Source of the DNA: an uncultured virus (IMG/VR IMGVR_UViG_3300009169_000018)
Taxonomy: Duplodnaviria > Heunggongvirae > Uroviricota > Caudoviricetes
Length of the DNA stretch: 64,000 nt
Strand: one strand, 5' to 3'
Virus record (IMG/VR): IMGVR_UViG_3300009169_000018
Coordinates: 1 to 64,000 of that record
Part shown: in pieces, positions 6,822 to 34,909 of the stretch
Numbering within the stretch: the stretch's first letter is position 1
How the letters are laid out: each line of letters starts with the position of its first letter
Program-made: the position numbers and the translations under genes
The notes under the pieces: generated by a model
The model's database searches: none
Seen by the model: the letters and a program-made list of their open reading frames with translations, nothing else
Told to the model about the DNA's origin: nothing

Positions 6822-7003
6822 GGTACCCGCTAGGGTAGCCTAGGGTACCCGCAGAAACGCCCCTAGAGGCTCTCAGACAGTCCTAGAGGGCATCCGTAAG
6901 TCCTTGATTCTAAAGGGCTTATTTTGATCAATTCTTAACCATCCTAAGTGCTTGATTCTCTTAGGGTTTTCCCTATTGCGTATTCCACCGGTTTTGCTAT
7001 ACT
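6822..7003 (+). promoter_or_regulatory. palindrome, two IHF-like boxes and extended -10 sigma70 promoter
   Basis: GGTACCCGCTAGGGTAGCCTAGGGTACC; TAAGTnCTTGATT at 6897 and 6945; TTGCGT(6976)-16-TATACT(6998) with TG. Confidence 0.75.
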
Positions 7004-7027
7004 GGTTGTACAAGGTAAGGAAAAGAT

Positions 7028-7738
7028 ATGCTGAATCGCAAAGTCACTGAATGGTCGAGCGCGGAATGCAAGTACGTCGATAAAGGTCGCGTCACTGAGC
7101 ATGTCGGTCGCTCGCTTTACGTGGCGAACGAAACCGTCCAGATCATGTCGGACGTATGGGATACGGAAACGTTCCTGTACTCCGTGCGCGACGACGGCAC
7201 GTTGAGCCGCGATTGCGTCGGCTACTGCGACAATCCGGAAATGAATCCGGTCTACGAAATTGATGCGACCGAAGAGGCGTTCGAACTTTATCGCGCCGCG
7301 CAGGAAGCTCGCCAGTACGAAACTCTGGTGCACAATACGAATGCGGAATACGCGAATCCGGCGCACAAGGGTCGCGTTGTGAAGGTTACGAAAGGTCGCA
7401 ATACGCCCAAGGGTGTTGTCGGCAAGGTTGTCGTAATCATCGAACGTCCGTATGGCATGGGCTATCACTCTTCGATGCGCAAGAAACTCGGTATTGCGAC
7501 CTCGGCTCGCACCGTTGAAAAGGTCATGCCGAATGGTAAGGTCTTCCAGAATCATGCCGACATGGTATGGGTTTGGGCGCACAACTGCGAAGTCGAAAAG
7601 CCGCAGACTGCGGACCTCGCACTCTGCCGCCAGATGGCGCAGGATTTTGCGAAGGGTGCCGTGAACGGTCTTCGCAAGACGCAGGCTGACCGCTACCAGT
7701 ACAATGCGCAAGGCATGAAGGGCTACAAGGCAGCGTAA
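7028..7738 (+). CDS. hypothetical protein
   Basis: 236 aa ORF with AAGGA RBS after strong promoter. Confidence 0.7.
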   Translation: MLNRKVTEWSSAECKYVDKGRVTEHVGRSLYVANETVQIMSDVWDTETFLYSVRDDGTLSRDCVGYCDNPEMNPVYEIDATEEAFELYRAAQEARQYETLVHNTNAEYANPAHKGRVVKVTKGRNTPKGVVGKVVVIIERPYGMGYHSSMRKKLGIATSARTVEKVMPNGKVFQNHADMVWVWAHNCEVEKPQTADLALCRQMAQDFAKGAVNGLRKTQADRYQYNAQGMKGYKAA

Positions 7739-8773: not shown

Positions 8774-8850
8774 GCAAAGGTCGTCTAACGGTTTAGGATA
8801 CTAGACTTTCAATCTGGAAGATGCGGGTTCGAATCCCGTCCTTTGCTCCA
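8774..8850 (+). tRNA. tRNA-Glu(TTC)
   Basis: Cloverleaf, GGTTCGAATCC, CCA. Confidence 0.9.
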
Positions 8851-8880
8851 ATTCTCAGAGCGCGACTAAATGCGCGTTCG

Positions 8881-8963
8881 GTAATGTGTCGGGAAAAGAG
8901 CGGTGCAATTCCGCAGTCACCTTCGGGTGTCAGTAAGTGTAATCAGGTGCACGTTCCCATTGT
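8881..8963 (+). ncRNA. circularly permuted tRNA-like RNA (YrlA-like topology)
   Basis: GGGAA/TTCCC closing stem; T-arm, then TTCG-capped acceptor-like stem, then D-arm. Confidence 0.6.
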
Positions 8964-8969
8964 TTCTAT

Positions 8970-9045
8970 TCCGGGTTGACTAGAGTGGTAATAGCCGCGA
9001 CTGTTAATCGCGTACTCGTAGGTTCGATCCCTACACCCGGAGCCA
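8970..9045 (+). tRNA. tRNA-Asn(GTT)
   Basis: Cloverleaf, CCA. Confidence 0.9.
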
Positions 9046-9049
9046 ACAT

Positions 9050-9125
9050 GCGTAGGTAATTCAACGGCTAGATTGCTTCCCTGTCACGGAAGATTATGCG
9101 GGTTCGAATCCCGTCTTACGCGCCA
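9050..9125 (+). tRNA. tRNA-Asp(GTC)
   Basis: Cloverleaf, CCA. Confidence 0.9.
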
Positions 9126-9236
9126 ACTTCGTAGTATGACCTACGTAAGATGTATTCCCGCTCGCAAAAGCGTAGGAGCATCCGGTGTCAAAGTCGCAGG
9201 GGGTTGCGTATCCTGATAAAACGCAAGACGAATTCC

Positions 9237-9310
9237 GGGGAGTTAGTATAACGGGATTATTTCTCGCTTGCACCGAGAAGACAAGGGTTCGATTCCCTTA
9301 CTCTCCACCA
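9237..9310 (+). tRNA. tRNA-Ala(TGC)
   Basis: Cloverleaf, G3:U70, CCA. Confidence 0.9.
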
Positions 9311-9315
9311 ACAAC

Positions 9316-9392
9316 GGGTCTGTCGTATAACGGCATATTATATCCGGCTCTTAACCGGTAAGATTAGGGTTCGATTCCCTACAGACCCACCA
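9316..9392 (+). tRNA. tRNA-Lys(CTT)
   Basis: Cloverleaf, CCA. Confidence 0.9.
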
Positions 9393-9397
9393 ATCAT

Positions 9398-9484
9398 GAG
9401 CGTAACACCCAATAGGAAGGGTATCGGGCTGTAACCCCGAAGTCGGCTAGTTCCGTGTAGGTTCGACTCCTACTGCGCTCACCA
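9398..9484 (+). tRNA. tRNA-Tyr(GTA)
   Basis: Cloverleaf with long variable arm, CCA. Confidence 0.9.
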
Positions 9485-9489
9485 ATTTT

Positions 9490-9584
9490 GTTCCTGTAGT
9501 TTAACGGTAGAACACCACCCTTATAAAGTGGCATTGTCGCCAGATTAGCGAACGGTCTAGGTTCGAATCCTAGCAGGAACACCA
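9490..9584 (+). tRNA. tRNA with TAT anticodon (Ile) and long variable arm
   Basis: Loop CTTATAA; ~25 nt variable region; CCA. Confidence 0.8.
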
Positions 9585-9592
9585 GTAGATTT

Positions 9593-9669
9593 CGGAGTGT
9601 AGCTCAGTCTGGTAGAGCACTGCGTTTGGGGCGCAGGTGTCCAAAGTTCGAATCTTTGTACTCCGACCA
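9593..9669 (+). tRNA. tRNA-Pro(TGG)
   Basis: Cloverleaf, CCA. Confidence 0.9.
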
Positions 9670-9675
9670 ATTTTT

Positions 9676-9754
9676 GCGAGTGTAGCAGAATCGGCATATG
9701 CGGGACACTTAAAACGTCCGTCACTTGTGGGTTCGACTCCCACTACTCGCACCA
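9676..9754 (+). tRNA. tRNA-Leu(TAA), short variable region
   Basis: Cloverleaf, CCA. Confidence 0.85.
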
Positions 9755-9974
9755 GAACTTGCGCGAACGCTAGGGATGACAACCCAAGGTCTTGCTCGTC
9801 ACAAGACTGTTAGTAACGCAACGTATAAAGCGGAGCGCGGAAATCGCGTTCGCAAACAGAATGATAGAGCCACCGGTAAAACTCCGGTCCTTGATAGACT
9901 AGCAAGCTACAAGGTAGTTCAAGAGGTCAACGCTTCGCAGCAAAGACCGCGACAGAACACTATCGCATATTTAC

Positions 9975-10048
9975 GCGGGGTTGGCATAATGGTTGTGTCC
10001 AAGTCTTCCAAACTTGTTACGCGGGTTCGATTCCCGCACTCCGCTCCA
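9975..10048 (+). tRNA. tRNA-Gly(TCC)
   Basis: Cloverleaf, TCCA end. Confidence 0.9.
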
Positions 10049-10052
10049 ATTC

Positions 10053-10128
10053 GCCCTTATAGCATAACGGAAAGTGCGTCGGGTTTCTACCCCGTTCGGT
10101 GTGGGTTCGATTCCTACTGAGGGCACCA
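10053..10128 (+). tRNA. tRNA-Arg(TCT)
   Basis: Cloverleaf, CCA. Confidence 0.9.
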
Positions 10129-10138
10129 ATTATTCAAT

Positions 10139-10215
10139 GCGCCTGTGACGGAACTGGCATACGTGTTAGTCTTAGAAGCTAAATTTTGTGGGTTCGACTC
10201 CCACCGGGCGCACCA
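10139..10215 (+). tRNA. tRNA-Leu(TAG), short variable region
   Basis: Cloverleaf, CCA. Confidence 0.9.
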
Positions 10216-10222
10216 ATTTCAT

Positions 10223-10296
10223 GTGGGATAAGTGTTACGGTAGCACAATAGTCTCCAAAACTACTAGCGGGGGTTCGACTCCCTCATCCCACGCCA
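10223..10296 (+). tRNA. tRNA-Trp(CCA)
   Basis: Cloverleaf, CCA. Confidence 0.9.
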
Positions 10297-10301
10297 ACAT
10301 C

Positions 10302-10377
10302 GGGTCCATGACGTAACGGCTAGCGTATCGGGCTTTTACCCCGTAAAGTCAGAGTTCGAATCTCTGTGGACCCACCA
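10302..10377 (+). tRNA. tRNA-Lys(TTT)
   Basis: Cloverleaf, CCA. Confidence 0.9.
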
Positions 10378-10556
10378 AAAAAGGTAGCTCGTAGCTTCCT
10401 AGAGAGTTAGTGCCGCTGCCGGTGCGAGTAGTTAGCCAACACTACTGCGCAGCAGAGAACGGTACTAACGATCTTCAATAGCGCGATAGATAGCTTCGCG
10501 GGTGTTAGCGGGTATGGTAGGAAATGACCGTATCAAAAACCCGCCGCGAATTCAAT

Positions 10557-10631
10557 GCCGGTGTCTTCTAATGGCTAGGAACGTCAGCCGATTACTGACT
10601 AATGGGGGTTCGATTCCTCTCACCGGTACCA
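10557..10631 (+). tRNA. tRNA-Ile(GAT)
   Basis: Cloverleaf; atypical loop CCGATTA; CCA. Confidence 0.8.
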
Positions 10632-10636
10632 ACTTT

Positions 10637-10711
10637 GCCCTTGTATTTCAACGGACAGAATACGACGCTACGAACGTCATGATGGGGGTTCGATTCCCTC
10701 CGAGGGTACCA
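10637..10711 (+). tRNA. tRNA-Arg(ACG)
   Basis: Cloverleaf, CCA. Confidence 0.9.
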
Positions 10712-10716
10712 ACTTT

Positions 10717-10791
10717 GTCTCTATAGTGTAATGGATAACACGCAACTCTCCGAAGGTTGTAATTCAGGCTCGACTCCTGATAGGGACACCA
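10717..10791 (+). tRNA. tRNA-Arg(CCG)
   Basis: Cloverleaf, CCA. Confidence 0.85.
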
Positions 10792-10835
10792 AACACAATG
10801 CCGCAAAAATGGGGAAACCTGTTGCGTGGCTCTCC

Positions 10836-10910
10836 GGTGATATCGTACAACGGCTAGTACAGGAGTCTCATAAGCTCTTAATGATGGTTCGATTCCATCT
10901 TTCACCACCA
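10836..10910 (+). tRNA. tRNA with CAT anticodon (Met or Ile2)
   Basis: Cloverleaf, CCA; not initiator-type. Confidence 0.85.
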
Positions 10911-10917
10911 ATTCAAT

Positions 10918-10992
10918 GCCGTCATAGTATAATGGCGATTACGTCTGTCTTGTAAGCAGACTATCTCAGTTCGATTCTGAGTGACGGCTCCA
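10918..10992 (+). tRNA. tRNA-Thr(TGT)
   Basis: Cloverleaf, CCA. Confidence 0.9.
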
Positions 10993-10997
10993 AATAT

Positions 10998-11073
10998 GTA
11001 AGCGTGGCAGACCGGCAGATGCATCGGATTGCAAACCCGATTTAAGCGAGTTCAATTCTCGCCGCTTACTCCA
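10998..11073 (+). tRNA. tRNA-Cys(GCA)
   Basis: Cloverleaf, U73, CCA. Confidence 0.9.
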
Positions 11074-11079
11074 AACAAT

Positions 11080-11153
11080 GCCCGATTCGTAAAATGGTAT
11101 TACCTCGCTTTTACACGGCGAAGTCGGCAGTTCGATCCTGTCATCGGGTACCA
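11080..11153 (+). tRNA. tRNA-Val(TAC)
   Basis: Cloverleaf, CCA. Confidence 0.9.
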
Positions 11154-11162
11154 ACAAACAAT

Positions 11163-11238
11163 AGCGAAAGAGTGAAACGGTTTACATTCTAGCCTCATAA
11201 GCTAGAGACATTGGGTTCGACTCCCATGATCGCTACCA
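11163..11238 (+). tRNA. tRNA with CAT anticodon (Met or Ile2), imperfect acceptor stem
   Basis: Cloverleaf, CCA. Confidence 0.75.
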
Positions 11239-11243
11239 ACAAC

Positions 11244-11317
11244 GTCCGATTAGCTTAAAAGTGAAGCACAGACCTGATAAGTCTGAGAAGTAGGAGCATT
11301 ACCTACATTGGACACCA
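11244..11317 (+). tRNA. tRNA-Ile(GAT), non-canonical T-loop
   Basis: All stems pair; T-loop AGCATTA; CCA. Confidence 0.8.
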
Positions 11318-11403
11318 ACTACATTCAGCGCACGAAAAGGTAAGTAGTGCGGTCTTGCGTCAACAAGGCGAGTTGTATCTTGACGGATATGATGACTGCG
11401 TGC

Positions 11404-11478
11404 GCCGCCATAGTATAACGGTTATTACAAGGTCTTGGTAAGACTTGAATCACAGTTCGATTCTGTGTGGTGGCACCA
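11404..11478 (+). tRNA. tRNA-Thr(GGT)
   Basis: Cloverleaf, CCA. Confidence 0.9.
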
Positions 11479-11561
11479 ATTCAATTCAGCACTCGTTCAT
11501 TTTCGCGAATGTTCGAAGCTACTGTGAAAGTCAGTCGTCGGTAGCGCGATAGCTACGCCAT

Positions 11562-11635
11562 GCGGGTATGATGTATTGGTTGCCTAGAACTTTGCCAAAG
11601 TTCATGAACGGGTTCGATTCCCGTTACCCGCTCCA
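11562..11635 (+). tRNA. tRNA-Gly(GCC)
   Basis: Cloverleaf, TCCA end. Confidence 0.9.
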
Positions 11636-11637
11636 AT

Positions 11638-12252
11638 TCAACACGGATCGTATCTGTAATCCAAGCGATACAGGTCTTCGATCCCGCGTCTTAGATCGTC
11701 GGTAACAACGAGGTCTGTTATGAAGTTCGGCTTCTCGTTCTCAACGGGAATGTCGATTGCCGTATCACCACCGAAGATGCCGATAAGTCTTCTGGCTTCC
11801 GATTCGAAGTCATGATAGTTGAGTACGTTCATGTTCGGATGGTCAAACCATGCGGACTGCGGCTTGAAGCCGAGAATGTTAGTGCGGTTGATCCGCTCCA
11901 ACAAATCCACCGGCTGACGATTGATCTTCTCTCTTAGGTGTTGCGGCAGCGCGTTGAATGACTCTTCATCCAATGGCTCTGGCATGACGACACCAGAGAA
12001 GTCTTCCGGAAAAAGTTTGAACAGGACGGTTCGATACGTGCGCAGAAAGTTGTACGTGGATACGAAACGTTCTACAGGGTCGCGCCAGAAAGCGTAACCC
12101 GTCAGTGCTAAATACGCGGGACTTGGAGTGTCATGAATGTGAACAGCAACATTCGTCCCAAGCGGTCTTAGCAGATTTCGAATGGTAGTCGAACCAGTCT
12201 TCGGCACCAGATAGAAAATGTATTTGTTATCGTGACTGACGATCATACTCAT
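11638..12252 (-). CDS. sulfotransferase family protein
   Basis: PAPS-binding motifs PKTGSTT and RDPVERFVS. Confidence 0.8.
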   Translation of the reverse strand: MSMIVSHDNKYIFYLVPKTGSTTIRNLLRPLGTNVAVHIHDTPSPAYLALTGYAFWRDPVERFVSTYNFLRTYRTVLFKLFPEDFSGVVMPEPLDEESFNALPQHLREKINRQPVDLLERINRTNILGFKPQSAWFDHPNMNVLNYHDFESEARRLIGIFGGDTAIDIPVENEKPNFITDLVVTDDLRRGIEDLYRLDYRYDPC

Positions 12253-12374
12253 ATTTAGGGGAAGAGAAATGTTCCAAGAAAGAAATAGAGCATACTACCT
12301 AAGACAAGCGCGAGCATGTTTCAAGGCAGGCTTGATCTTTCTGAAACGTTCGGTCTTCCTCCCCAAGAGATAAT

Positions 12375-12450
12375 GTCCTCTAAACTAATCTAGTGAAAGT
12401 GCAAGTTTGAAAAACTTGAGAGGTTGGAGCGTAACCAACAGAGGACACCA
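12375..12450 (+). tRNA. tRNA-Phe(GAA), non-canonical T-loop
   Basis: T-loop AGCGTAA; CCA. Confidence 0.8.
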
Positions 12451-12556
12451 CATTTCCTACGTCACTGAAATTGAACGTAGCGTAATAGAGTCAACAGATG
12501 AAACGACCTCCCTAGTGGTGCACTCAATAGTGCTGAAAAAATCTGTCGAATACAAT

Positions 12557-12633
12557 GCACCGGTCTTCTAACAGGATAGGAAAACAGATTCTCAATCTGT
12601 GCAATGACGGTTCGAATCCGTTCCGGTGCGCCA
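12557..12633 (+). tRNA. tRNA-Glu(CTC)
   Basis: Cloverleaf, CCA. Confidence 0.85.
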
Positions 12634-12708
12634 ACCAATCGTCCCGCGCATAGCTCGACAGCGCATGTGTACACATGGGCAGAATCAACTGCCGGGATGA
12701 CCAGATAA

Positions 12709-12783
12709 CAGGATGTAAGTCAAAAGCAGACGACCTCGCTTGGAACGAGGAGGTAGGTGGAGCGTTACCACCCATCCTGACCA
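12709..12783 (+). tRNA. tRNA-Pro(TGG), non-canonical T-loop
   Basis: T-loop AGCGTTA; CCA. Confidence 0.8.
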
Positions 12784-12926
12784 ACATCTTGCGTACATTT
12801 TCTAGAGGGTGTACGTGAGGACTTGAAAGTAGCCGACTGGCAAATTACGATTCAAGCGTCACGCCCTTTACGATACAGGGCGACTCATTCAGAAAGTAGT
12901 TCATATGGACTACTAAGTAGATCAAT

Positions 12927-13003
12927 GGTGCCGGTAGCATAATGGTTAATGCCCAAGACTGTGAATCTTGAAGATGCGGGTTCGAATCCCGTCCAGCACC
13001 CCA
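12927..13003 (+). tRNA. tRNA-His(GTG)
   Basis: G-1:C73, cloverleaf, CCA. Confidence 0.9.
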
Positions 13004-13022
13004 AACACAAACGGAGTTTCCC

Positions 13023-13202
13023 ATGGCAGCGAAGAACGATGTAACAGGCGATAGCATAAAAACTAAGACCGGCAACTCTAATGCATATGCAAAGGGTTGG
13101 GATCGTATCTTCAAGAAAGGGAAAGCCAAGAAAGGTGAAGAACTAACAGTGTGCGTTGCAAAGCGCGGCGTTGGTAAGTCAACCTTCAACAAGAACAATT
13201 GA
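13023..13202 (+). CDS. 59-aa small basic protein (MAAKNDVTGDSIKTK...GWDRIF)
   Basis: Read by hand; GGAG RBS; below ORF-track cutoff. Confidence 0.65.
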   Translation: MAAKNDVTGDSIKTKTGNSNAYAKGWDRIFKKGKAKKGEELTVCVAKRGVGKSTFNKNN

Positions 13203-13277
13203 CCACATGCGGTACCGGTATCTGCACCTTGTCTTTGAAACAAGATTTTCTAGGTTCGAATCCTAGGTGGTCAGCCA
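13200..13277 (+). tRNA. tRNA-Gln(TTG)
   Basis: U1-A72, G73, CCA. Confidence 0.8.
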
Positions 13278-13409
13278 ATTTCTCTCGCGAGGAAAAACAA
13301 CGAATCGTACTACGTTGTAAAACAAGGGTACGCAACCATGTGCTGAAAGCAGACGGCTAACGTGCTGTCTCTTCCTTCGGGAAGTGGAGTAAGAGTGGTG
13401 GTAGTAAGC

Positions 13410-13486
13410 GATTCTAAGATAGTTCAATCAGGTAGAACAACCTCACGCTAAGAGGGAGACAGAGGTTCAAATCCTCACTAGAATCC
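13410..13486 (+). ncRNA. aberrant tRNA-like element (no CCA)
   Basis: D-arm and GGTTCAAATCC T-arm present; offset acceptor stem; loop ACGCTAA. Confidence 0.55.
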
Positions 13487-13524
13487 GGACGCAGCTTCCA
13501 AGAATGCCAAATGCGTCCAACTTT

Positions 13525-13598
13525 TCTCGGCTCGTCTAACGGCAGGACGCAACACTCTGAATGTTGCTATCGAGGTTCGAATCCTTGGCTGAGAACCA
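13525..13598 (+). tRNA. tRNA-Gln(CTG)
   Basis: Cloverleaf, CCA. Confidence 0.9.
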
Positions 13599-13638
13599 AA
13601 CATACATACTCTTGAGTGACCCTCAAGAGGATTACAAG

Positions 13639-14181
13639 ATGGAACCGATTCAAGTGATGTACGAAGGCGACCTCGCCCCTCTGATTGAGTGGGCTGAGAA
13701 TGGCGACAGGGATCGCGACGGATTAGGCTTCGCGCCTGAACCGTTCTACTCATGGGTGCGCAATCACATGCCGCCCTACTGTCGCGGATTCGTTACGAAC
13801 ACCATCGGGTACATAACGGAGAATGGAATCTTCGACGGTGATTGGGTTAAGGGATATCCACATATCCATACCACAACGATGTTTTGGGAACCCGAGATAT
13901 ACACCATCATCACCTATCTGATCGTACCCGAAGAGGGTGGCGAATTCGCGATGGGTGGATTGGAACGGAACGATCCGTACACTTTGATTCCGGTCAAGCC
14001 GGGATTGTCCATCGGGTGTGATTCAATCACATGGCATGGAGTCAAGCAAGTACGAAAGGGAAAGCGCGTTGCGATAGTGACGGCAGGCTTTCCATCACAA
14101 GAGTACCAGAAGAAATGTCTGGCACTGAGAAACGAGAACAAAGGAAGGTTGCGCGAGAGGCTTATGCGCCCTGTTTGCTAA
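13639..14181 (+). CDS. 2OG-Fe(II) oxygenase-like protein
   Basis: YL...GGEF, WHGV...GKR motifs; GAGGA RBS. Confidence 0.7.
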   Translation: MEPIQVMYEGDLAPLIEWAENGDRDRDGLGFAPEPFYSWVRNHMPPYCRGFVTNTIGYITENGIFDGDWVKGYPHIHTTTMFWEPEIYTIITYLIVPEEGGEFAMGGLERNDPYTLIPVKPGLSIGCDSITWHGVKQVRKGKRVAIVTAGFPSQEYQKKCLALRNENKGRLRERLMRPVC

Positions 14182-14230
14182 ACAGAGGGATGTAACAGTC
14201 ACAGAGGTTCGAATCCTCTACCTTCCGCCA
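14143..14230 (+). tRNA. tRNA-Ser(GCT)
   Basis: Long variable arm, G73, CCA. Confidence 0.9.
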
Positions 14231-14235
14231 AATTT

Positions 14236-14325
14236 GGAAGATTGACCGAGAGGCTTATGGTTCCCGCTTGGAAAGCGGTGAGTGGGGAAACCTACACACA
14301 GGTTCAAATCCTGTATCTTCCGCCA
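14236..14325 (+). tRNA. tRNA-Ser(GGA)
   Basis: Long variable arm, CCA. Confidence 0.9.
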
Positions 14326-14330
14326 CATAT

Positions 14331-14404
14331 GGTTCTGTCGTATAGAAGCAATACACGGCATTGACATTGCTGAAAAGATGGAGCGTTACCATCCAGAACC
14401 ACCA
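14331..14404 (+). tRNA. tRNA-Val(GAC), non-canonical T-loop
   Basis: T-loop AGCGTTA; CCA. Confidence 0.8.
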
Positions 14405-14410
14405 ACTAAA

Positions 14411-14498
14411 GGAAGGTTGGCAGAGAGGCTAATTGCCGCTGTTTCGAAAGCAGATGGGTGTAAAAACCACACAGGTTCAAATCCTGTACCTTCCGCCA
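14411..14498 (+). tRNA. tRNA-Ser(CGA)
   Basis: Long variable arm, CCA. Confidence 0.9.
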
Positions 14499-14504
14499 GA
14501 CAAT

Positions 14505-14581
14505 GCGAGTGTGATGTAACTGGCAAACGTGATCGGCTCAAACCCGATTTTTTGTGGGTTCGAATCCCACCACTCGCACCA
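14505..14581 (+). tRNA. tRNA-Leu(CAA), short variable region
   Basis: Cloverleaf, CCA. Confidence 0.9.
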
Positions 14582-14585
14582 ATAC

Positions 14586-14662
14586 GCGCCTATGACGGAA
14601 CAGGCATACGTCTAACGTTGAGAACGTTAGTTTTGTGGGTTCGAATCCCACTAGGCGCACCA
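14586..14662 (+). tRNA. tRNA-Leu(GAG), short variable region
   Basis: Cloverleaf, CCA. Confidence 0.9.
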
Positions 14663-14778
14663 AACATTGAGAGTATGGAAATTACTCAATGAAATTGGAC
14701 TAGGTGAGGATGGAACGTTGCTAGTACGTACACGGAATACCATAACTGTTTAGTCGCCGGAACCATAACCGGAACAAT

Positions 14779-14974
14779 TTACTGAGTCGAGCTAACGCAG
14801 GCAACTGAGGAAGTTCGCGACTCTCGCCAAGGTCGCGTGGGAGGCTAACGCCGTCTAACCACCGTGACACAGAGAGCAACACAAACAGAACGTGGGAAAC
14901 CTTGGCTTATACGTTCGGGTTGTGGCAAAGATGAATGTTAGCATAGAACAGAATCGCGGCTACGGACTCAGTAA
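14779..14974 (+). ncRNA. rnpB: minimal RNase P RNA
   Basis: P1 TTACTGAGTC/GACTCAGTAA; CR-I GAGGAAGTTCGCG and CR-V AACAGAATCGCGGCTA forming P4. Confidence 0.8.
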
Positions 14975-14982
14975 TTTCAATA

Positions 14983-15059
14983 GCTGACCCATACGTGTCG
15001 AAAGCTCTTTAGGCAAGACTTGCGGAAGTCGAAATACGCAAGTTAGACGGTGGGTTGGC
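14983..15059 (+). ncRNA. Y-RNA-like small RNA candidate
   Basis: Terminal stem GCTGACCCAT/GTGGGTTGGC with GTCGAAAG opposite TAGAC. Confidence 0.45.
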
Positions 15060-15068
15060 GGTACCTAT

Positions 15069-15145
15069 ACCCTTGTAGTTTCAACGGACAGAACACCCCG
15101 GTCCTAACGGGTCCAATGCAGGTTCGAATCCTGTCGAGGGTACCA
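15069..15145 (+). tRNA. tRNA-Arg(CCT)
   Basis: Cloverleaf, CCA. Confidence 0.9.
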
Positions 15146-15152
15146 CATATTC

Positions 15153-15227
15153 GCTGTCATCGTATAATGGCTATTACGGATGTTTCGTAAGCATCCTATC
15201 TCAGTTCGACTCTGAGTGACAGCACCA
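15153..15227 (+). tRNA. tRNA-Thr(CGT)
   Basis: Cloverleaf, CCA. Confidence 0.9.
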
Positions 15228-18198: not shown

Positions 18199-18651
18199 AT
18201 GGCTATCCTATATATTGTGAGGGGCGTGTCCGGTTCGGGCAAGTCTACTCTGGCTCGCGAAATGGCATCTAAGCTTGGCTTGGAACACTATGAAGCGGAC
18301 CAGTGGTTTGAGCGGGATGGAGTCTACAACTTCGATCCTCGCGAACTACAGAATGCGCACGCGGCTTGCTTGGAAAATGCAATGTACGCTATGCGACATT
18401 TGGGCGGGTGTATCGTGTCCAACACGTTCACTCGCCTTTGGGAGATGCGAAACTATCTCGACTTTGCCGCAGAACTCGGCTGTCAGATTCGCATCATAAC
18501 GTGCCGTGGGCAGTATCAGAATACGCACGGCTTGAGTGACAAGGACGTTGAAAAGCAGCGTGCGCGTTTCCAGAGCAATCTACAGATTGCCAAGGAATTG
18601 CAGTATGATCGGCAACGGTTCGGAATGATCGTCTTTTCGAACCATGGATAA
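18199..18651 (+). CDS. polynucleotide kinase-like P-loop protein (AAA_33)
   Basis: RGVSGSGKST, EAD, VSNTFT motifs. Confidence 0.8.
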   Translation: MAILYIVRGVSGSGKSTLAREMASKLGLEHYEADQWFERDGVYNFDPRELQNAHAACLENAMYAMRHLGGCIVSNTFTRLWEMRNYLDFAAELGCQIRIITCRGQYQNTHGLSDKDVEKQRARFQSNLQIAKELQYDRQRFGMIVFSNHG

Positions 18652-19540
18652 TGAAATGCACTTAGTTGATAGACAGTTGCGTGAGTTTGCTGAGTCCCAT
18701 CCGGACTTAGTTTCCGTTCGCATGTCAGTTCGCCATCCGCGTCTGCGAGTGGTGAAGTACAAGCCGAAGGTTTTCTACAAGGCACTCTGGACTCCTGAGT
18801 TGTGCGAAATGCGCGGCTTAGTTGTGGACGAGGATTGGAACGTCATCGTGCGCCCTTTCCGCAAGATCTTCAACCGCTTCGAATCCGGTACCGATTTCCC
18901 GTTGGATGCCGAAGTTGCGGCTGCGCGTAAGGTCAACGGCTTCATGGCAGCGTTGACGATGGATGATGAATACGGCTTGATTGTTTCGACAACGGGTTCG
19001 TTGGATTCGCCATTCGTTACCATGGCTGAGAAGTATCTGCTGCCGTTGAAGGATTCCGGTCTGATCAACGGTGTTACGTATCTCTTCGAAATCGTGGATC
19101 CAGAGGATCCGCACATTGTCGAAGAGAAGGTTGGCGCATACCTGATTGGTGCGCGTGCGGTCTGTTCAAAGATCACGCTCCTAGAGTGTGACCTAGACGA
19201 GATTGCAAAGGGAATGGGTGTGTTGCGTCCGGAATGGAAGCGTGCATCGTTTCGCGAGATAGTCGAAGAGACTAAGACTTGCAAGCATGAGGGATTCGTT
19301 TGCTACAACGTAGAGAACGGACATGCTCTTAAGATCAAGTCTCCATACTATCTGGTTAAGAAGTTCTTCGCTCGCGTGCGTGCGGAGAAGCTAACGGCAG
19401 ATTGGCTACAGGCTAATCGCCACAACTTTGATGAAGAGTTTTACGGATTGATTGACTATATCTCGGACAACCGGGATCAGTTCACCACAATGGATCAAGA
19501 GGGGCGCAAGTCCTTCATCGAACACTTTTTGTCGTTATGA
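18644..19540 (+). CDS. T4 Rnl1-type RNA ligase
   Basis: EMRG, PF.KIFN, KVNG (motif I), FEIV, EGFV, KIKS..Y. Confidence 0.85.
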   Translation: MDNEMHLVDRQLREFAESHPDLVSVRMSVRHPRLRVVKYKPKVFYKALWTPELCEMRGLVVDEDWNVIVRPFRKIFNRFESGTDFPLDAEVAAARKVNGFMAALTMDDEYGLIVSTTGSLDSPFVTMAEKYLLPLKDSGLINGVTYLFEIVDPEDPHIVEEKVGAYLIGARAVCSKITLLECDLDEIAKGMGVLRPEWKRASFREIVEETKTCKHEGFVCYNVENGHALKIKSPYYLVKKFFARVRAEKLTADWLQANRHNFDEEFYGLIDYISDNRDQFTTMDQEGRKSFIEHFLSL

Positions 19541-20169
19541 CTGAACATTTAGGTATATGGATCGGGCAGAATGTGGTGTCTGTCCGCTTCCCTGAGAGAG
19601 AAAGAAAAGTGGAAAAGATTTGGTTTACTTCCGATACTCATTTCGGACACAAGAACATTTTGAAGTTTTGCCCTAACTCCCGTCCTGTGAAGGACGTTGA
19701 AGAGCATGATGAACGATTGATTCGCAACTGGCAAGAGCAAGTTGCGCCGCATGATCGCGTCTATCACTTGGGCGACTTTTTCTTCTGCAACGGCGACCGA
19801 GCGCGTAAGATCCTCGACCGTCTGCCGGGACAGATTCACTTCATTCACGGCAACCACGATAAGGTGATTTCGTCTAACCACGATATCCGCTCGCGGTTCG
19901 TTTCCGTGTCCGACTACAAGGAACTGCGGATTGACGAAATCAAGGTCTGCCTGTTCCACTTCCCGATTTACGAGTGGCATCATATCCACTACGGATCGTT
20001 CCATCTGTACGGTCACGTTCACGGCTCCGTACAGGTACCGGGTCGCGCAATGGACGTAGGCGTGGATACCCGTCCCGGTGGAGACATGAAGCTTTGGTCT
20101 TGGCAAGAGGTCAAGGCAAAGCTATCGGCGCGTGAGGTTCGCACTCACCACAACAACGTGAGAATGTAA
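19537..20169 (+). CDS. calcineurin-like metallophosphoesterase
   Basis: DTHFGH, HLGD, GNHD, GHVH motifs. Confidence 0.9.
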   Translation: MTEHLGIWIGQNVVSVRFPERERKVEKIWFTSDTHFGHKNILKFCPNSRPVKDVEEHDERLIRNWQEQVAPHDRVYHLGDFFFCNGDRARKILDRLPGQIHFIHGNHDKVISSNHDIRSRFVSVSDYKELRIDEIKVCLFHFPIYEWHHIHYGSFHLYGHVHGSVQVPGRAMDVGVDTRPGGDMKLWSWQEVKAKLSAREVRTHHNNVRM

Positions 20170-23200: not shown

Positions 23201-24259
23201 ATGAGCAAGCAAACACACATGTCCGTGTTCATCGGACGCTTTCAGCCGCCACACAAGGCGCACATCGAAACCATCACTCGCGCATTGGAATTCTCCGACA
23301 AGGTGCTAATTCTAATCGGTTCGGCATTCAAGCCATCCGACACGCGCAATCCGTTCCCCGCAGCAGAACGCCGGGAAATGATCCAGACTTGCTTTAATCT
23401 GGAAACGCAAAAGCGACTCGTATTCGACTATATCTCCGACCATCCATACAACGATCTTGCGTGGGTGAAGAATGTCCAGACCGCAATCGACAAGGCTTAC
23501 TATGACAACTTCGGTTGGCAGGACAAGGCTGACATTACGCTGATCGGACACCACAAAGACGAGTCCACGTATTATCTCGACCTCTTCCCGTCTTACAAGC
23601 AAGCGGAAATGGAGAACATCTACGGTCTGGATTCCACGACCATCCGTGAACTCTACTTCGCAGGCAAGGATGCGTGGAAGAACAGCAACATGAAGCGTGT
23701 CGCGCAGTTCGTTCCGCAGCCGGTCATGAACTACATCACCAATCACATGAAGCTGATCGCGTATGATCGTCTTGTGCGCGAATTCGAATTCCTTCGCACC
23801 TACAGGCTACAGTGGTCGCAGGCTCCGTATCCACCAGTGTTCGTCACTGCGGATGCCGTTGTCACCAACATGGGACACGTTCTACTCGTTCGCCGCAAGT
23901 CCGCACCGGGAGAAGGTCTGTGGGCAATGCCGGGAGGTTTCCTCAATCAGTACGAAACGCTGCGTGAGTGTGCGAATCGCGAACTAGAGGAAGAGACTAA
24001 GATCAAGGTTCCGCCGCGAGTCCTCGACGGTTCAATCGTCAAGGAAAAGCGATACGATCATCCCGGTCGCTCGCTGCGCGGACGCACGATCACAACCGCA
24101 TTTCACTTCGATCTACATGAACGGACTATGCCGAAGGTTCGCGGCTCAGATGACGCTGCGCAAGCCAAGTGGGTTCCGTTGGCTGAATTCATCAAGATGC
24201 AAGCCGTCATGTACGAAGACCACTATTCAATCATCACCGACCTTCTAGGTTTGGGCTGA
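23201..24259 (+). CDS. nadM: bifunctional NMN adenylyltransferase / ADP-ribose Nudix hydrolase
   Basis: [19 protein letters not shown]; Nudix box GG...E....A.RELEEET. Confidence 0.95.
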
Positions 24260-24301
24260 GATAGACTTAGCCCCGTTTCAACAGCAGATAAGGAGTTTAT
24301 C
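24253..24301 (+). promoter_or_regulatory. two-hairpin leader motif, copy 2
   Basis: ATAGA-loop hairpin plus RBS-sequestering hairpin. Confidence 0.65.
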
Positions 24302-25675
24302 ATGCGTACCAATCTTCTACTTAACACCGACTCGTACAAGGCTTCCCACTGGCTCCAATACCCACCGGGAACAGAGTACGTCTATTCATACATCGAATCT
24401 CGCGGCGGTCTTCATGACGCGACCGTGTTCTTCGGTCTACAGGCATTCGTAAAAGAATACCTGATCGGCGGCGTGTTTACTCAGGATGACATTGAGGAAG
24501 CCGCAGCGTTCTTTGCCGCACATGGCGAACCGTTCAATCGTGAGGGATGGGAATACATCCTGCGCGAATACGGTGGCAAGCTGCCAATCGAAATCAAGGC
24601 ACTGCCAGAAGGTCTGCGCGTTCCTGTGCGCACTCCGCTAGTCACCATCGTCAACACAGACCCGAAGTGCTTCTGGTTGACCTCGTATCTGGAAACCGCA
24701 CTGCTTCGCGCAGTCTGGTATCCGACGACTGTTGCGACAATCTCACACTACATCAAGACCATCATCAAGCGTGAACTGGAAGAGACAGGCGACCTCGCCG
24801 GTCTGCCGTTCAAGCTACATGACTTCGGTGCGCGTGGCGTATCGTCCAACGAATCCGCAGCCCTCGGTGGCATGGCGCATCTGGTCAACTTCCAAGGCTC
24901 CGACACGGTTCAGGGTGTAGTCGCGGCGGCTCGTTACTACAACGAGAAGATGGCAGCGTTCTCCATCCCCGCAGCCGAGCATTCCACGATTACTACGTGG
25001 GGTAAGACTCGCGACGGTGAGACTGCGGCATACTACAACATGATTCAGAAGTACAGCAAGCCGGGAAGCATCTTCGCAGTTGTTTCTGACTCCTACGATA
25101 TCTTCAAGGCGTGCGAAGAGATTTGGGGTGGAAGCCTCAAGGATGCCGTAATTGCTCACGGTGGTACTCTGGTCATCCGTCCTGACTCCGGTGATCCGGT
25201 TGCTGTCACACTTCGCTGCGTCCAGATTCTTGACGAGAAGTTCGGCAGCACTCGCAATGACAAGGGATTCAAAGTCCTCAATCACGTTCGACTCATTCAG
25301 GGTGACGGTGTGAATCCTTCAAGCATCGAAGCCATCCTGATGAACTTCAAGGCACATGGCTACAGCGCAGACAACATTGCGTTCGGCATGGGCGGCGCGT
25401 TGCTCCAACACATGAACCGTGACACACAAGAGTTCGCAATGAAGGCGAGCGCAGTCATGGTCAACGGTGAATGGCGGGACGTATCCAAGTCACCTGTCGG
25501 TCAGGCTTCGAAAAAGTCGAAAGGTGGACGTTTCTCGGTGGTTATGGAAGGCGGTCGCCTGATAACCATCGGTTATGACGAGACTGAGGAAGACTACTTG
25601 AGAACCGTTCTCATCAACGGGAAACTGGTACGGGACATGACACTAAGCCAGATTCGCTACAATACGAGCCTCTAG
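24302..25675 (+). CDS. nadV: nicotinamide phosphoribosyltransferase (NAMPT)
   Basis: TDSYKASH, HDFGARG, PAAEHS, RPDSGDP, QGDG, FGMGG. Confidence 0.95.
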   Translation: MRTNLLLNTDSYKASHWLQYPPGTEYVYSYIESRGGLHDATVFFGLQAFVKEYLIGGVFTQDDIEEAAAFFAAHGEPFNREGWEYILREYGGKLPIEIKALPEGLRVPVRTPLVTIVNTDPKCFWLTSYLETALLRAVWYPTTVATISHYIKTIIKRELEETGDLAGLPFKLHDFGARGVSSNESAALGGMAHLVNFQGSDTVQGVVAAARYYNEKMAAFSIPAAEHSTITTWGKTRDGETAAYYNMIQKYSKPGSIFAVVSDSYDIFKACEEIWGGSLKDAVIAHGGTLVIRPDSGDPVAVTLRCVQILDEKFGSTRNDKGFKVLNHVRLIQGDGVNPSSIEAILMNFKAHGYSADNIAFGMGGALLQHMNRDTQEFAMKASAVMVNGEWRDVSKSPVGQASKKSKGGRFSVVMEGGRLITIGYDETEEDYLRTVLINGKLVRDMTLSQIRYNTSL

Positions 25676-25700
25676 AAGCCTAATATGAGCCGTTTGGGGA

Positions 25701-25870
25701 GTACCCGCTAGGGTAGCCTAGGGTACCCCCAAATAGCCCCAAAACGCCTCTCAGGGGGCTTACAGAGGCTCTCGTAAGTGCTTGATTCTATTAGGGTTAT
25801 TAGGGCTAATCTAAGTTACTGATTCTTAAAAGCTTTTTCGTGTTGCATTCTCGGTCCAGTCTGATATACT
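25701..25870 (+). promoter_or_regulatory. palindrome, two IHF-like boxes and extended -10 promoter
   Basis: GTACCCGCTAGGGTAGCCTAGGGTACC; boxes at 25775 and 25812; TTGCAT(25843)-16-TATACT(25865) with TG. Confidence 0.75.
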
Positions 25871-25876
25871 GGTATT

Positions 25877-26215
25877 ACAGAGTGAGGAAACGGGCATGAG
25901 TTAGTAGACACAGTAACGGTTGCGTTCAAGGGTAAGTTACCATGACACTTGAATAACCGCGCACAGCATGGTGACTCGGCATAGCAAAATGACCCCGCTA
26001 TGTCGGATACAAAGAGAGCCGACTCATTAACCGGTGGGGTGCGCAACTGGCACAAGGCGTTAACAAAAGTTGAAACTGCCACGGATGGGAACCTGAATCG
26101 CGCAGTGCGGTCCCTACCATCTAAGAATAGACCGCAACTGCGCACTTGGGAAAGGATACACTGACGACGACGGGACAGATGGTAGCTTTGTAAAGCACTG
26201 TCCCGTCGAATTTCA
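25877..26215 (+). ncRNA. large structured ncRNA or 5' leader of unknown class
   Basis: No + strand ORF in the track; many stems and long-range complementarities. Confidence 0.55.
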
Positions 26216-26223
26216 GATCGAAT

Positions 26224-26640
26224 ATGGCATACATGAGTCAAGAGCGCAAGGCGCAACTCTCCCCGGCTATCAAGGCGCATTGCGCCAAGTATGGCATCAA
26301 GGCTTCGATTGCCGTGCGCCATCATTCGACCCTTGTGGTCAACATCAAGTCGGGCAAGCTCGACTTCTGCCAGAATTTCTACGATACGCAGGCTCCGGTT
26401 CATGCGCATCGTTATCCGCATCATGAAGCCATGATGAAGCCGAATGCCATTCAAGTCAATCCGCACTGGTGCCATGAGCATTTCTCTGGCAAGTGCAAGA
26501 CGTTCATCGTGGAACTCATTCGCCTGATGAACATCGGCAACCATGACCGTTCGGACATTCAGACCGACTACTTTGATGTGGGTTGGTACAAGGATGTGAA
26601 CATTGGTACGTGGAACAAGCCTTACGTGGTGACGAAGTAA
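26224..26640 (+). CDS. hypothetical protein (conserved-looking phage early protein)
   Basis: MAYMSQE...DRSDIQTDYFDVGWY..V.IG.W.KPY. Confidence 0.7.
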   Translation: MAYMSQERKAQLSPAIKAHCAKYGIKASIAVRHHSTLVVNIKSGKLDFCQNFYDTQAPVHAHRYPHHEAMMKPNAIQVNPHWCHEHFSGKCKTFIVELIRLMNIGNHDRSDIQTDYFDVGWYKDVNIGTWNKPYVVTK

Positions 26641-29498: not shown

Positions 29499-30032
29499 AT
29501 GAATGTGTTTTTCCTCGACCGTGATCCTCAGATCGCGGCGCAGTTTCATAATGACAAACATGTGGTAAAGATGATTCTGGAATCCGCACAGTTGCTCTCG
29601 ACTGCGCATCGGGTTCTGGACGGCGACTCAAAAGGAGTGCTGAGTGATGCGCGAAATGACGTTCTCTATAAGGCTACCCACCGTAATCACCCGTCTGCTG
29701 TATGGGTTAGACGCGAACTTGATCACTATCGTTGGGTTCATGATCTACTGTATTTTCTTATTGGTGAGTTCCGCTATCGCTACGGCAAGCCGCACGCCAC
29801 AGAACGTCTACAGCCCTTTCTTCTAGACGCACCGCACAACATCCCCATGGACGGTCCTTTCATCATGGAAGACCCTCCGCAGTGTATGCCGGATGACTCC
29901 AAGCATGAAGATTGTGTGACAGCGTACCGTACATACTACGCTAGACATAAATACCATATCGCGGGTTGGAAACGTCGCGGCACTCCGGAGTGGTGGAATG
30001 AAACGGTTCAAGGAATTCATATCGGAAAGTAG
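29499..30032 (+). CDS. denV: pyrimidine dimer DNA glycosylase / endonuclease V family
   Basis: MNVF.LD..P..AA...DKHVVKMILESAQLL; TH.NHP. Confidence 0.8.
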   Translation: MNVFFLDRDPQIAAQFHNDKHVVKMILESAQLLSTAHRVLDGDSKGVLSDARNDVLYKATHRNHPSAVWVRRELDHYRWVHDLLYFLIGEFRYRYGKPHATERLQPFLLDAPHNIPMDGPFIMEDPPQCMPDDSKHEDCVTAYRTYYARHKYHIAGWKRRGTPEWWNETVQGIHIGK

Positions 30033-30606
30033 TCTTCATGTCTTCGACATAGATGACACGCTGTTCCATACGACCGCAAAAGTCCACGTAAAGAAAGGTG
30101 GCAAGACGGTCAAGACCCTCTCTTCGGCTGAGTATAACAGCCATACGCTCCCACCGGGACACTCGTATGACTACCACGAATTCCACTCAGCCCACAAATT
30201 CGACACCGAATCCAAGCCTGTTCATCGGATGATGGACAAGCTGAAAGGCGTTCATGCCTCCGTGAAAGCGAAGGGGAACGGACGAGTCATTCTCAATACC
30301 GCAAGGCAGGACTTCGATGACCGAGAAACGTTTTTGGGAACCTTTCGCAAGCATGGTGTTGAGATTGATGATATTCACGTACATCGTGCGGGTAACATTG
30401 CTAGGGAGAAAGGAATCTCCGTTGGACACGCCAAGAACGAAGTCATACGAAAACACCTAAATACAGGTAACTACAAACACGTAAGCCTATACGACGATTC
30501 CGAAGAAAACCTGAATCACTTCAAAGAGTTATCCAAAGAGCATCCCGACGTAAAGTTCAAAGCATACCACGTTCAACCAGACGGGCGAATTAAGCATCAC
30601 AAGTGA
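29998..30606 (+). CDS. HAD-superfamily phosphatase
   Basis: FDIDDTL (motif I), TAR, K, YDDS. Confidence 0.8.
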   Translation: MKRFKEFISESSLHVFDIDDTLFHTTAKVHVKKGGKTVKTLSSAEYNSHTLPPGHSYDYHEFHSAHKFDTESKPVHRMMDKLKGVHASVKAKGNGRVILNTARQDFDDRETFLGTFRKHGVEIDDIHVHRAGNIAREKGISVGHAKNEVIRKHLNTGNYKHVSLYDDSEENLNHFKELSKEHPDVKFKAYHVQPDGRIKHHK

Positions 30607-34429: not shown

Positions 34430-34540
34430 ATGGAACTATTACTAGGATTTGTCGCAGGCGCATTGGTGGGATGGCACTTCCCGCAGCCTGCATGGGTTAA
34501 GACTCTGATTGCGGCAGTGAAAGCCAAGCTAGCGGAGTAA
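34430..34540 (+). CDS. 36-aa membrane peptide (MELLLGFVAGALVGWHFPQPAW...)
   Basis: Read by hand; GGAGG RBS. Confidence 0.6.
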   Translation: MELLLGFVAGALVGWHFPQPAWVKTLIAAVKAKLAE

Positions 34541-34858
34541 TCGGTTATAGTGGTATGATGTGAAGTGAAGGTATTCTGGACGCGGGTTCGACTCCCGCCT
34601 GCTCCACCACGAAAGACTCTCACCCGAGATGCGCAGAAGTTGAGTTCTTACTGCGATACAAGGGAACAACACTCTGAGAGTCTTTCGTAATGGGGCAGTC
34701 AAGGTTTCGACAGGGTAAGATAGCGGAACGGACCACTAGAGAGGCGACTGACTTAATCAGCGCAAACACTACAAATGCAAACGCAGATGTATACGAGGAA
34801 GTGCGCCTAGCGGCGTGACCCTCCGGGGCAGGAAATGCCTTGTTACCAAAACCACCAG
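34541..34858 (+). ncRNA. ssrA: circularly permuted two-piece tmRNA; tag ANADVYEEVRLAA
   Basis: T-arm and CTGCTCCACCA end at 34609; intervening hairpin; GGGGCAG at 34692 (G3:U70); tag frame 34777-34818; outer ends approximate. Confidence 0.9.
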
Positions 34859-34909
34859 AAGGGGAGAGGGCAACCTCTCCCCGTCTTTACATGATGAAAG
34901 TCGCAACAC

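Follow-up and report, generated by a model that had tools for sequence, protein, structure and literature searches.

A candidate family of pseudoknotted structured RNAs in front of a phrog_10415 gene in a large uncultured phage and its relatives

The locus and its surroundings

The window, the whole 64 000 nt stretch of DNA analysed here, comprises the initial 64 kb of an IMG/VR virus record, 75.5 kb in total length, that was judged to be ~44 % complete, and it is a fragment of a large uncultured phage. It includes 36 tRNA matches spread over 8.7–15.2 kb (8774–15224) and encodes an RNA ligase, a phosphoesterase, a polynucleotide kinase, an HNH endonuclease and PhoH. The ligase, phosphoesterase and kinase genes are at 18644–20169 and 29998–30606, and we take them to be a tRNA-repair set like that of phage T4, used against anticodon nucleases. 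A permuted, two-piece tmRNA of the beta-proteobacterial type is at 34485–34886 and provides a hint that the host is a betaproteobacterium. Closer to the region of interest, the gene for an NMNAT-Nudix fusion (23201–24259) adjoins the gene for NAMPT (24302–25675). Together, these form an NAD-salvage pair (23201–25675), a pair described as a phage NAD+ reconstitution pathway that opposes NAD-depleting defences.

A gap of 548 nt separates the NAMPT gene from the next gene on the + strand (26224–26640), a putative early gene encoding a 138-aa protein that belongs to phrog_10415, for which there is a weak lead to LPD29 (Atlas) and no Pfam family was found. Most of this gap is filled by the RNA that is the subject of this study. 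Reading from the NAMPT side, the gap includes a promoter, a Shine–Dalgarno (SD) sequence with a two-codon ORF (ATG AGT TAG), the structured RNA of ~310 nt and then the ATG of the 138-aa gene, which is not preceded by an SD. Co-oriented small ORFs run from 26224 to ~29300, with the RNA at their head.

Two ORFs in this region were considered as genes and rejected. An antisense ORF of 242 aa (25816–26544, − strand) spans the whole RNA and can easily mislead gene callers; outside the window, it is open in just one homologue (L091), and there in a different frame, and it has no Pfam match. A 54-aa ORF is unconserved and also has no Pfam match.

Homologues of the RNA

Eighty viral loci encoding a relative of the downstream protein were examined for the RNA, and it was present in only two of them, namely a contig identical to the window and L005 (78 % identical over 487 nt). 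In a further locus, L006, the promoter is present and the RNA is absent. Five further distinct copies (L088, L089, L090, L091 and L093) were found in metagenome contigs using a two-motif pattern, and a looser pattern together with a covariance model, R1, built on positions 25976–26143, added L104, giving eight distinct RNA sequences in total. No additional true copy was found when 98 full viral records were searched with R1; three weak matches (11.4, 16.7 and 13.1 bits) were rejected as they were either short or lacked 49–53 central positions. Two matches in Actinomycetota genome contigs, found in the pattern search, were attributed to chance as they had nothing else in common with the RNA profile. 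A further pattern search revealed no new true homologue, scans for exact motifs in viral contigs recovered the two contigs already known and no others, and a blastn search of 50 697 phage records found nothing similar to the RNA.

The RNA family is, hence, rare and, so far, it is always in front of a phrog_10415 gene, the RNA being directly upstream of this gene in all eight distinct homologues. The neighbours on the other side vary, with NAMPT in five cases, a GOLLD RNA in L104 and neither in L088, while the L091 contig ends there. As the downstream proteins of the window and L104 share only 52 % identity, the RNA has been kept across considerable divergence. The GOLLD RNA (RF02032) in L104, a viral contig of 7.9 kb, is at 1992–2448 on the − strand and scored 161.5 bits (gathering score 150). 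It has a tRNA-Pro inside it (2308–2382) and lies ~290 nt upstream of the promoter of the RNA homologue, on the same strand.

Evidence for a conserved fold

The preliminary description of this region, made from the sequence of the window, had proposed a large and ornate multi-pseudoknot non-coding RNA behind a promoter, and all the segments it quoted could be located in the window, displaced by no more than 1 nt from the positions given. A ribozyme, which it named as an alternative, gained no support from the ribozyme and intron models of Rfam, none of which matched even at E≤10. When folded, the + strand reached −107 kcal/mol (z −2.18, with 2 of 100 shuffles as low) and the − strand was weaker (z −1.82). 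Because this is only mildly better than chance, and there was no match in Rfam or in phage sequences, the verdict had to rest on the relatives.

A structure of ten helices, including the pseudoknots, was scored on a plain MAFFT alignment of the eight sequences (alignment A5). Standard pairs were found in 95.9 % of the 566 cells, compared with 83.4 % in shuffled alignments, and both-side changes were seen in 31 of the 71 pairs, compared with 15.7±2.4 in shuffles; neither value was reached in any of 500 shuffles, though the structure was derived from the same eight sequences on which it was scored and the shuffle null ignores the relatedness of the sequences. As the eight sequences are related and partly recombinant, the covariation counts do not represent independent events. 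When the partners were slid by one to three columns, only 34–48 % of cells remained paired and both-side changes were confined to three or four pairs. A version with seven sequences had both-side changes in 28 of the 71 pairs, and an unbiased helix scan of the first seven sequences, with no more than one unpaired or gapped cell allowed in each pair, placed the same helices at the top. A related contig from an RNA library (described below) adds four compensated pairs.

The + strand is favoured by the G·U pairs (32 cells), with 95.9 % paired on the + strand versus 90.3 % on the − strand. There is no conserved reading frame, and six of the eight homologues have at least two stop codons in each of the six frames. 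Thus, the covariation found in the eight homologues bears out the main claim of the preliminary description. The comparative data support a conserved fold of ~310 nt on the + strand, in which three tandem H-type pseudoknots are combined with a hairpin whose loop is invariant and, at the 3′ end, a GC-rich hairpin, with a −10 element upstream.

Elements of the fold

Eight pairings had been put forward in the preliminary description. Five of these are supported, though one only in part, two are not, and the last, ACCCC/GGGGT, is invariant. Pseudoknot 1 (25917–25975) consists of helix H1 crossed by 25936–44/25967–75. The inner 6 bp of H1 (25925–30/25948–53), which had been listed as part of CGGTTGCGTTCAAG/CTTGAATAACCG, covary at four of six pairs, while the outer 5 bp (25917–21/25955–59) show no both-side change (0/5). 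The crossing helix, GTTACCATG/CATGGTGAC, has both-side changes in five of its nine pairs. By eye, L088 and L091 appear to have a different version of this domain that is still pseudoknotted.

Hairpin H2 (25976–26006; stem 25976–85/25997–26006), identified earlier as TCGGCATAGC/GCTATGTCGG, has both-side changes in six of ten pairs, and the RNA-library contig has additional compensated pairs at 25982/26000, 25983/25999 and 25985/25997. Its 11-nt loop, AAAAUGACCCC, is invariant in seven of the eight sequences, the exception being L104, which has AAAAACGACCCC. Beyond H2 is the most conserved single-stranded stretch, GAGAGCCGACUCAUUAACCGGUGGGGU (26014–26040), which is nearly invariant and would contact the H2 loop through ACCCC (25992–96) and GGGGU (26036–40). 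All five of these pairs can form in every sequence (100 % paired) and none covaries (0/5), the contact being invariant in 8/8. A tentative candidate for a mini-hairpin of 3 bp lies at 26014–16/26023–25, where GAG/CUC is replaced by GUG/CAC in L005 and L104.

Pseudoknot 2 (26041–26081), in which 26041–44/26057–60 is crossed by 26048–52/26077–81, was missed in the preliminary description. All four pairs of the first helix covary, as does one of the five pairs in the second, and in the RNA-library contig a C to G change at 26044 is coupled with a G to C change at 26057. In pseudoknot 3 (26083–26143), helix H3 (26100–12/26130–43; GCGCAGTGCGGTC/GACCGCAACTGCGC) has both-side changes in four of 13 pairs and is 99 % paired. 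The loop at 26114–22 had been assigned a downstream partner at 26177–85, and this is replaced by an upstream one, GGAUGG at 26083–88, which pairs with CCAUCU at 26117–22 in the H3 loop (5/6 pairs covary, 100 % paired).

A purine-rich linker beginning GGGAAAGGA (26144–26167) is SD-like, with AGGA or GAGG found in all eight sequences. It was considered as one part of an SD split across the terminal hairpin and rejected, as the spacing, ~26 nt when measured by hand, is too long. The last part of the RNA (26168–26215) holds the GC-rich terminal hairpin and the motif behind it. The hairpin has a base (26168–75/26201–08; CGACGGGACAG/CTGTCCCGTCG) that is 100 % paired, with two of eight pairs covarying, and a distal part of variable length. 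Directly 3′ of it is GAAUUUCA (26208–15), in which GAAUUU is invariant in 8/8 and the next two bases are CA in seven of the eight. The motif GAATTTCA is not enriched in the window (27 matches versus 20.9 expected) and was rejected as a general phage signal; a second exact copy at 43361 is, by eye, probably inside a coding sequence.

The two pairings that fell away are ATGAGTT/GACTCAT, which is 67.9 % paired and no better than shuffles, and CTACCATCT/AGATGGTAG, which is 47.2 % paired, a count that is weaker because the 3′ partner lies in a poorly aligned stretch. Jointly, they are 56.3 % paired compared with 55.3 % in shuffles, a value equalled or exceeded in 211 of the 500 shuffled alignments.

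The promoter

The putative early promoter (25843–25870, + strand) comprises TTGCAT at 25843–48, a spacer of 16 nt and TGaTATACT, with the −10 at 25865–70. A consensus scan missed it because the −35 matches at only three of six positions. The promoter is inferred from conservation of the −10, which is TATACT in L005, L089, L090 and L093 and TAGAAT in L088; the counterpart in L104 is TTGACA-17-TACTAT, and a −10 element is found ahead of the RNA in all seven of the homologues for which upstream sequence is available. Similar cassettes at 6998 and 28372 in the window, and a −60 element held in common with 6945–6968, add to this inference.

Repeats lie ahead of two promoters of this design: the 28 nt at 25701–25728 are identical to 6823–6850, and the 24 nt at 25775–25798 match 6945–6968 with one mismatch. 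A related −60 motif also precedes 17826. From their sequences, these repeated upstream elements look like mobile promoter cassettes.

An orphan SD, a start-stop and a gene start lacking an SD

Between the promoter and the RNA (25884–25904, + strand) is an orphan SD, GAGGAAA (25884–90), followed by the mini-ORF ATG AGT TAG (25896–25904). The same SD cassette serves a normal gene at 7010–7030. All eight sequences keep a start codon with TAG directly behind it or one codon later (ATG AGT TAG twice, ATG AAT TAG once, TTG TAG three times and ATG TAG twice), with a plausible SD located 5–8 nt from it in six of the eight and a weak or absent one in L088 and L091. In L104, the leader is unrelated and a canonical CAGGAGAAAC is followed by ATG TAG. 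The TAG lies 9–12 nt ahead of pseudoknot 1. At the other end of the RNA, 6–17 A/U/C-rich bases separate GAAUUUCA from the ATG of the gene. An SD core (GGAG, GAGG or AGGA at −18 to −4) was found for none of the eight RNA-bearing genes compared with 60 of 65 distinct upstream regions lacking the RNA. A promoter of the form TTGAC-N16–19-TAnnnT was present within 90 nt in 48 of the 78 RNA-less loci. Hence, the normal layout for this gene is promoter-SD-ATG and, in the RNA clade, the SD-start and the ATG of the gene are separated by the RNA.

This arrangement raises the question of whether the RNA is an element whose excision or skipping lets the downstream gene use the orphan SD-start, either as a self-splicing intron of an undescribed class at the start codon or via a ribosome shunt or bypass across ~320 nt. 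The layout, SD-N5–8-(A/T)TG / TAG…RNA…ATG / GCN, is the one expected from insertion at a start codon, and L104 and the window share sequence from the TAG onward and none upstream of the first start codon. The gene lacks an SD of its own and the stop immediately follows the start. In phage T4, a stop lies just inside the 5′ splice site of the introns and also beside the take-off codon of gene 60, where translational bypass across a gap of ~50 nt depends on a nascent-peptide signal. The RNA locus resembles gene 60 in that a codon is followed at once by UAG, with a matching codon downstream: take-off and landing codons match in five of the eight sequences, trivially, as both are ATG read by initiator tRNA, and two of the other three have an in-frame matching codon at the start of the gene (checked by hand). 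However, L089 has no matching landing codon, the gap is 320–370 nt rather than 50 nt, and a nascent-peptide signal is impossible.

For an intron, the 5′ exon would end in G and not U, there is no closing helix joining the two ends, and no model for a group I, group II or other ribozyme matched at E≤10 in the window or E≤0.1 in six homologues. There was no Intron_gpI match, and by hand the covarying helices, which are all local, could not be mapped onto P3–P9, nor do the three local H-type pseudoknots fit the P3–P7 topology of group I introns. A precedent for a large structured RNA between a ribosome-binding site and a start codon is found in Clostridioides difficile, where a c-di-GMP-II riboswitch and a group I intron occupy this position. 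The RNA studied here differs in having no group I core and no riboswitch model match, and in that no spliced form was seen. Overall, we consider excision or skipping of the RNA to be quite improbable.

Possible traces of expression

In two sediment metatranscriptome runs from one study, relatives that are 85–95 % alike were found (four contigs). Two other metatranscriptome runs gave no contig matching this stretch, which does not count as evidence that it is absent there. One of these, of 664 nt, runs contiguously from ~25900 through the RNA and into the gene, and its sequence differs over the variable part of the terminal hairpin. As contigs from RNA libraries may derive from DNA and do not reveal starts or ends, this is only a weak hint that the RNA and the gene are co-transcribed. 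A joint removing the RNA was not seen in this one spanning contig, which is unspliced, and this is a further point against excision, though such contigs drop rare forms.

No terminator was called by the scan behind the RNA. The GC-rich terminal hairpin resembles that of an intrinsic terminator but it has no U tract, as it is followed by AAUUUC with only three U. The position of the RNA right behind an early promoter, heading the small ORFs from 26224 to ~29300, together with its rigid, pseudoknotted fold and lack of a switch, would suit a processive antitermination RNA that acts in cis on its own polymerase and aids transcription through the downstream small genes. RNAs of this kind are put of phage HK022 and EAR of Bacillus. 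However, the RNA is several times larger than put or EAR and had no Rfam match, and the terminator scan gave no downstream terminators that would need to be read through. In addition, antitermination leaves the start-stop and the loss of the SD of the gene unexplained. We consider this role improbable.

Comparison with known RNAs

Nothing in Rfam matched the RNA of the window at the gathering score or at E≤10, and among the bacterial RNase P RNA, GOLLD and ROOL models none matched within the RNA. With the Rfam models at E≤0.1, no match was found within the RNA in L104, L088, L093, L089, L090 or L091, the GOLLD match in L104 being outside it; in all, no match was found in any of the seven homologues scanned. 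A mir-9437 match at 25612–61 is inside the NAMPT gene and was dismissed as noise. In the literature, no account of such an RNA was found in listings and abstracts.

The RNA resembles the pseudoknot-rich body of tmRNA (PK2–PK4) in that both include a string of local H-type pseudoknots of 40–60 nt each, here three with covariation, and the phage, which is rich in tRNAs, also encodes a tmRNA (34485–34886). A 19-nt stretch of the conserved linker, AGAGAGCCGACTCATTAA (26012–26030), is alike at 17 of 19 positions to the stretch preceding the tag in the tmRNA of the same phage (34737–34755, approximate). These likenesses would fit a divergent member or decaying remnant of a known family, be it tmRNA, RNase P RNA, group I intron, GOLLD or ROOL. 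However, the tmRNA similarity score of 21 is not significant when compared with 18.9±2.1 in shuffles (maximum 26), ARAGORN found no tRNA-like domain in 25600–26400, and there was no tmRNA model match at E≤10. There is also no conserved tag frame, indels between pseudoknots 1 and 2 are not multiples of three, and the RNA differs from tmRNA in its position in an mRNA leader. The strong covariation speaks against decay. We therefore regard descent from one of these families as very improbable.

GOLLD and ROOL (RF02032 and kin) are also large and elaborate phage RNAs and, as noted above, there is a GOLLD nearby in L104. The RNA is, however, ~310–340 nt, compared with 416 positions in the GOLLD model, and is tied to a protein gene, not to tRNAs. 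With riboswitch-type cis regulators, the RNA shares its location in a 5′ leader, between a promoter and the same gene in 8/8, but no riboswitch model matched. Among leaders of other kinds, that of Escherichia coli rpsA is structured and lacks an SD, and that of T4 gene 32 is a pseudoknotted phage leader. Compared by description, these resemble the RNA in having a folded 5′ leader before a start lacking an SD, or a pseudoknot in the leader of an early or middle phage mRNA, and differ from it in that the RNA is much larger, with three pseudoknots as well as the orphan SD and start-stop.

Gain and loss of the RNA

In a tree of 73 downstream proteins, from which L004 (identical to the window), L082 and L090 (truncated) and 11 exact duplicates were left out, six of the seven RNA-bearing rows fall in one starred clade (99), which also includes the RNA-less L006. 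The exception, L104, lies outside this clade in the free tree, and that topology involves three changes. In an AU test, a single clade made up of the seven RNA rows and L006 was not rejected (p 0.498), and so one gain and one loss suffice. Homing of the RNA to the same site in unrelated copies of the gene was also considered and was rejected on the basis of this test.

The loss is seen in a comparison of L006 with L088. The proteins are nearly identical and both flanks align, and ~369 nt holding the whole RNA is absent from L006. The RNA is, thus, not strictly required by the gene. Moreover, the deletion was imprecise and left no recreated SD-ATG, and this also counts against a role for the RNA as an element that is removed to join the orphan start to the gene.

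What the RNA may do

At the least, the RNA represents a new structured family, without a match among the RNA families known, that has good support as a candidate for inclusion in Rfam. RNAs of this size with pseudoknots backed by covariation are rare, and most of those known have been identified as ribozymes, as riboswitches or as components of the translation machinery. Beyond this, the reading that we tentatively prefer, with a probability of about 0.4, is that the RNA is a structured 5′ leader of a new kind, acting in cis within an early phage mRNA. That the SD is consistently lost and the motif at the junction conserved points to coupling of the RNA with the gene. It would be co-transcribed with the gene and act in cis, as a rigid folded platform that takes over the start of the expression of the gene. 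Ribosomes recruited by the orphan SD would be halted at once by the TAG and, hence, would not unfold the RNA, and when halted at the start-stop they may also shield its 5′ end. Initiation at the gene would be SD-independent and start from the A/U/C-rich bases 3′ of the terminal hairpin, and the folded leader would set its efficiency. Possible routes are recruitment of the ribosome or S1, stability of the mRNA or an effect on the transcribing polymerase.

The helix scans revealed no conserved alternative pairing of the switch type, and the sole switch candidate, in which 26032–39 would pair with the 3′ side of the terminal hairpin, does not hold in L104 when examined by hand. The accessibility of the two start regions, calculated from partition functions with a model that ignores pseudoknots, gave no clear pattern. 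Several observations weigh against a cis-acting leader. With ~310 nt and three pseudoknots, the RNA exceeds most cis regulators, 58 of the 66 distinct genes of the family that were examined make do with a plain promoter and SD, L006 keeps the gene despite having lost the RNA, and in L088 and L091 the start-stop has little or no SD.

Nearly as good, though in itself on the unlikely side, is the possibility that the RNA is an autonomous, trans-acting, stable non-coding RNA that merely makes use of the early promoter. In this case, it would be an early and abundant product ending at the terminal hairpin through weak termination or cleavage in GA/AUUU. Its target would be some partner in the host or the phage, such as the translation apparatus or a defence system, and the gene would be expressed via read-through. 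The fold, which is elaborate, apparently constitutive and has invariant loops, is consistent with this, as are the failure to find an expression-platform switch and the existence, in L006, of the gene without the RNA. A stable 3′ hairpin and a 5′ SD with a parked ribosome would also fit a long-lived RNA. The neighbourhood is rich in functions for the maintenance of translation and for counter-defence (36 tRNA matches, a tmRNA, and RNA-repair and NAD-salvage genes), and the GOLLD RNA ~290 nt upstream in a relative shows that such phages keep large non-coding RNAs. However, the RNA was never found away from this gene (8/8, with 98 viral records searched using R1), standard criteria give no terminator, the contig from the RNA library reads on into the gene, and the loss of the SD together with the junction motif again point to coupling with the gene.

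The RNA could reveal a new means by which phages initiate or regulate the translation of an early gene. Its layout is unusual and testable, with a start-stop behind an orphan ribosome-binding site, a rigid body of three pseudoknots and a gene lacking an SD, and the gene has done without an SD of its own across relatives down to 52 % protein identity, while almost all other relatives keep one. Alternatively, it could be a new phage non-coding RNA in a region of tRNA, tmRNA, RNA-repair and NAD-salvage functions.

Exchange within the RNA

The proteins of L091 and L093 are 98 % identical, and the 3′ parts of their RNAs are identical. L091, however, carries a pseudoknot-1 domain of the L088 type, not the type found in the window (approximately columns 77–137 of alignment A5). 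Judged from these alignments, this looks like a modular swap inside the RNA, brought about by recombination.
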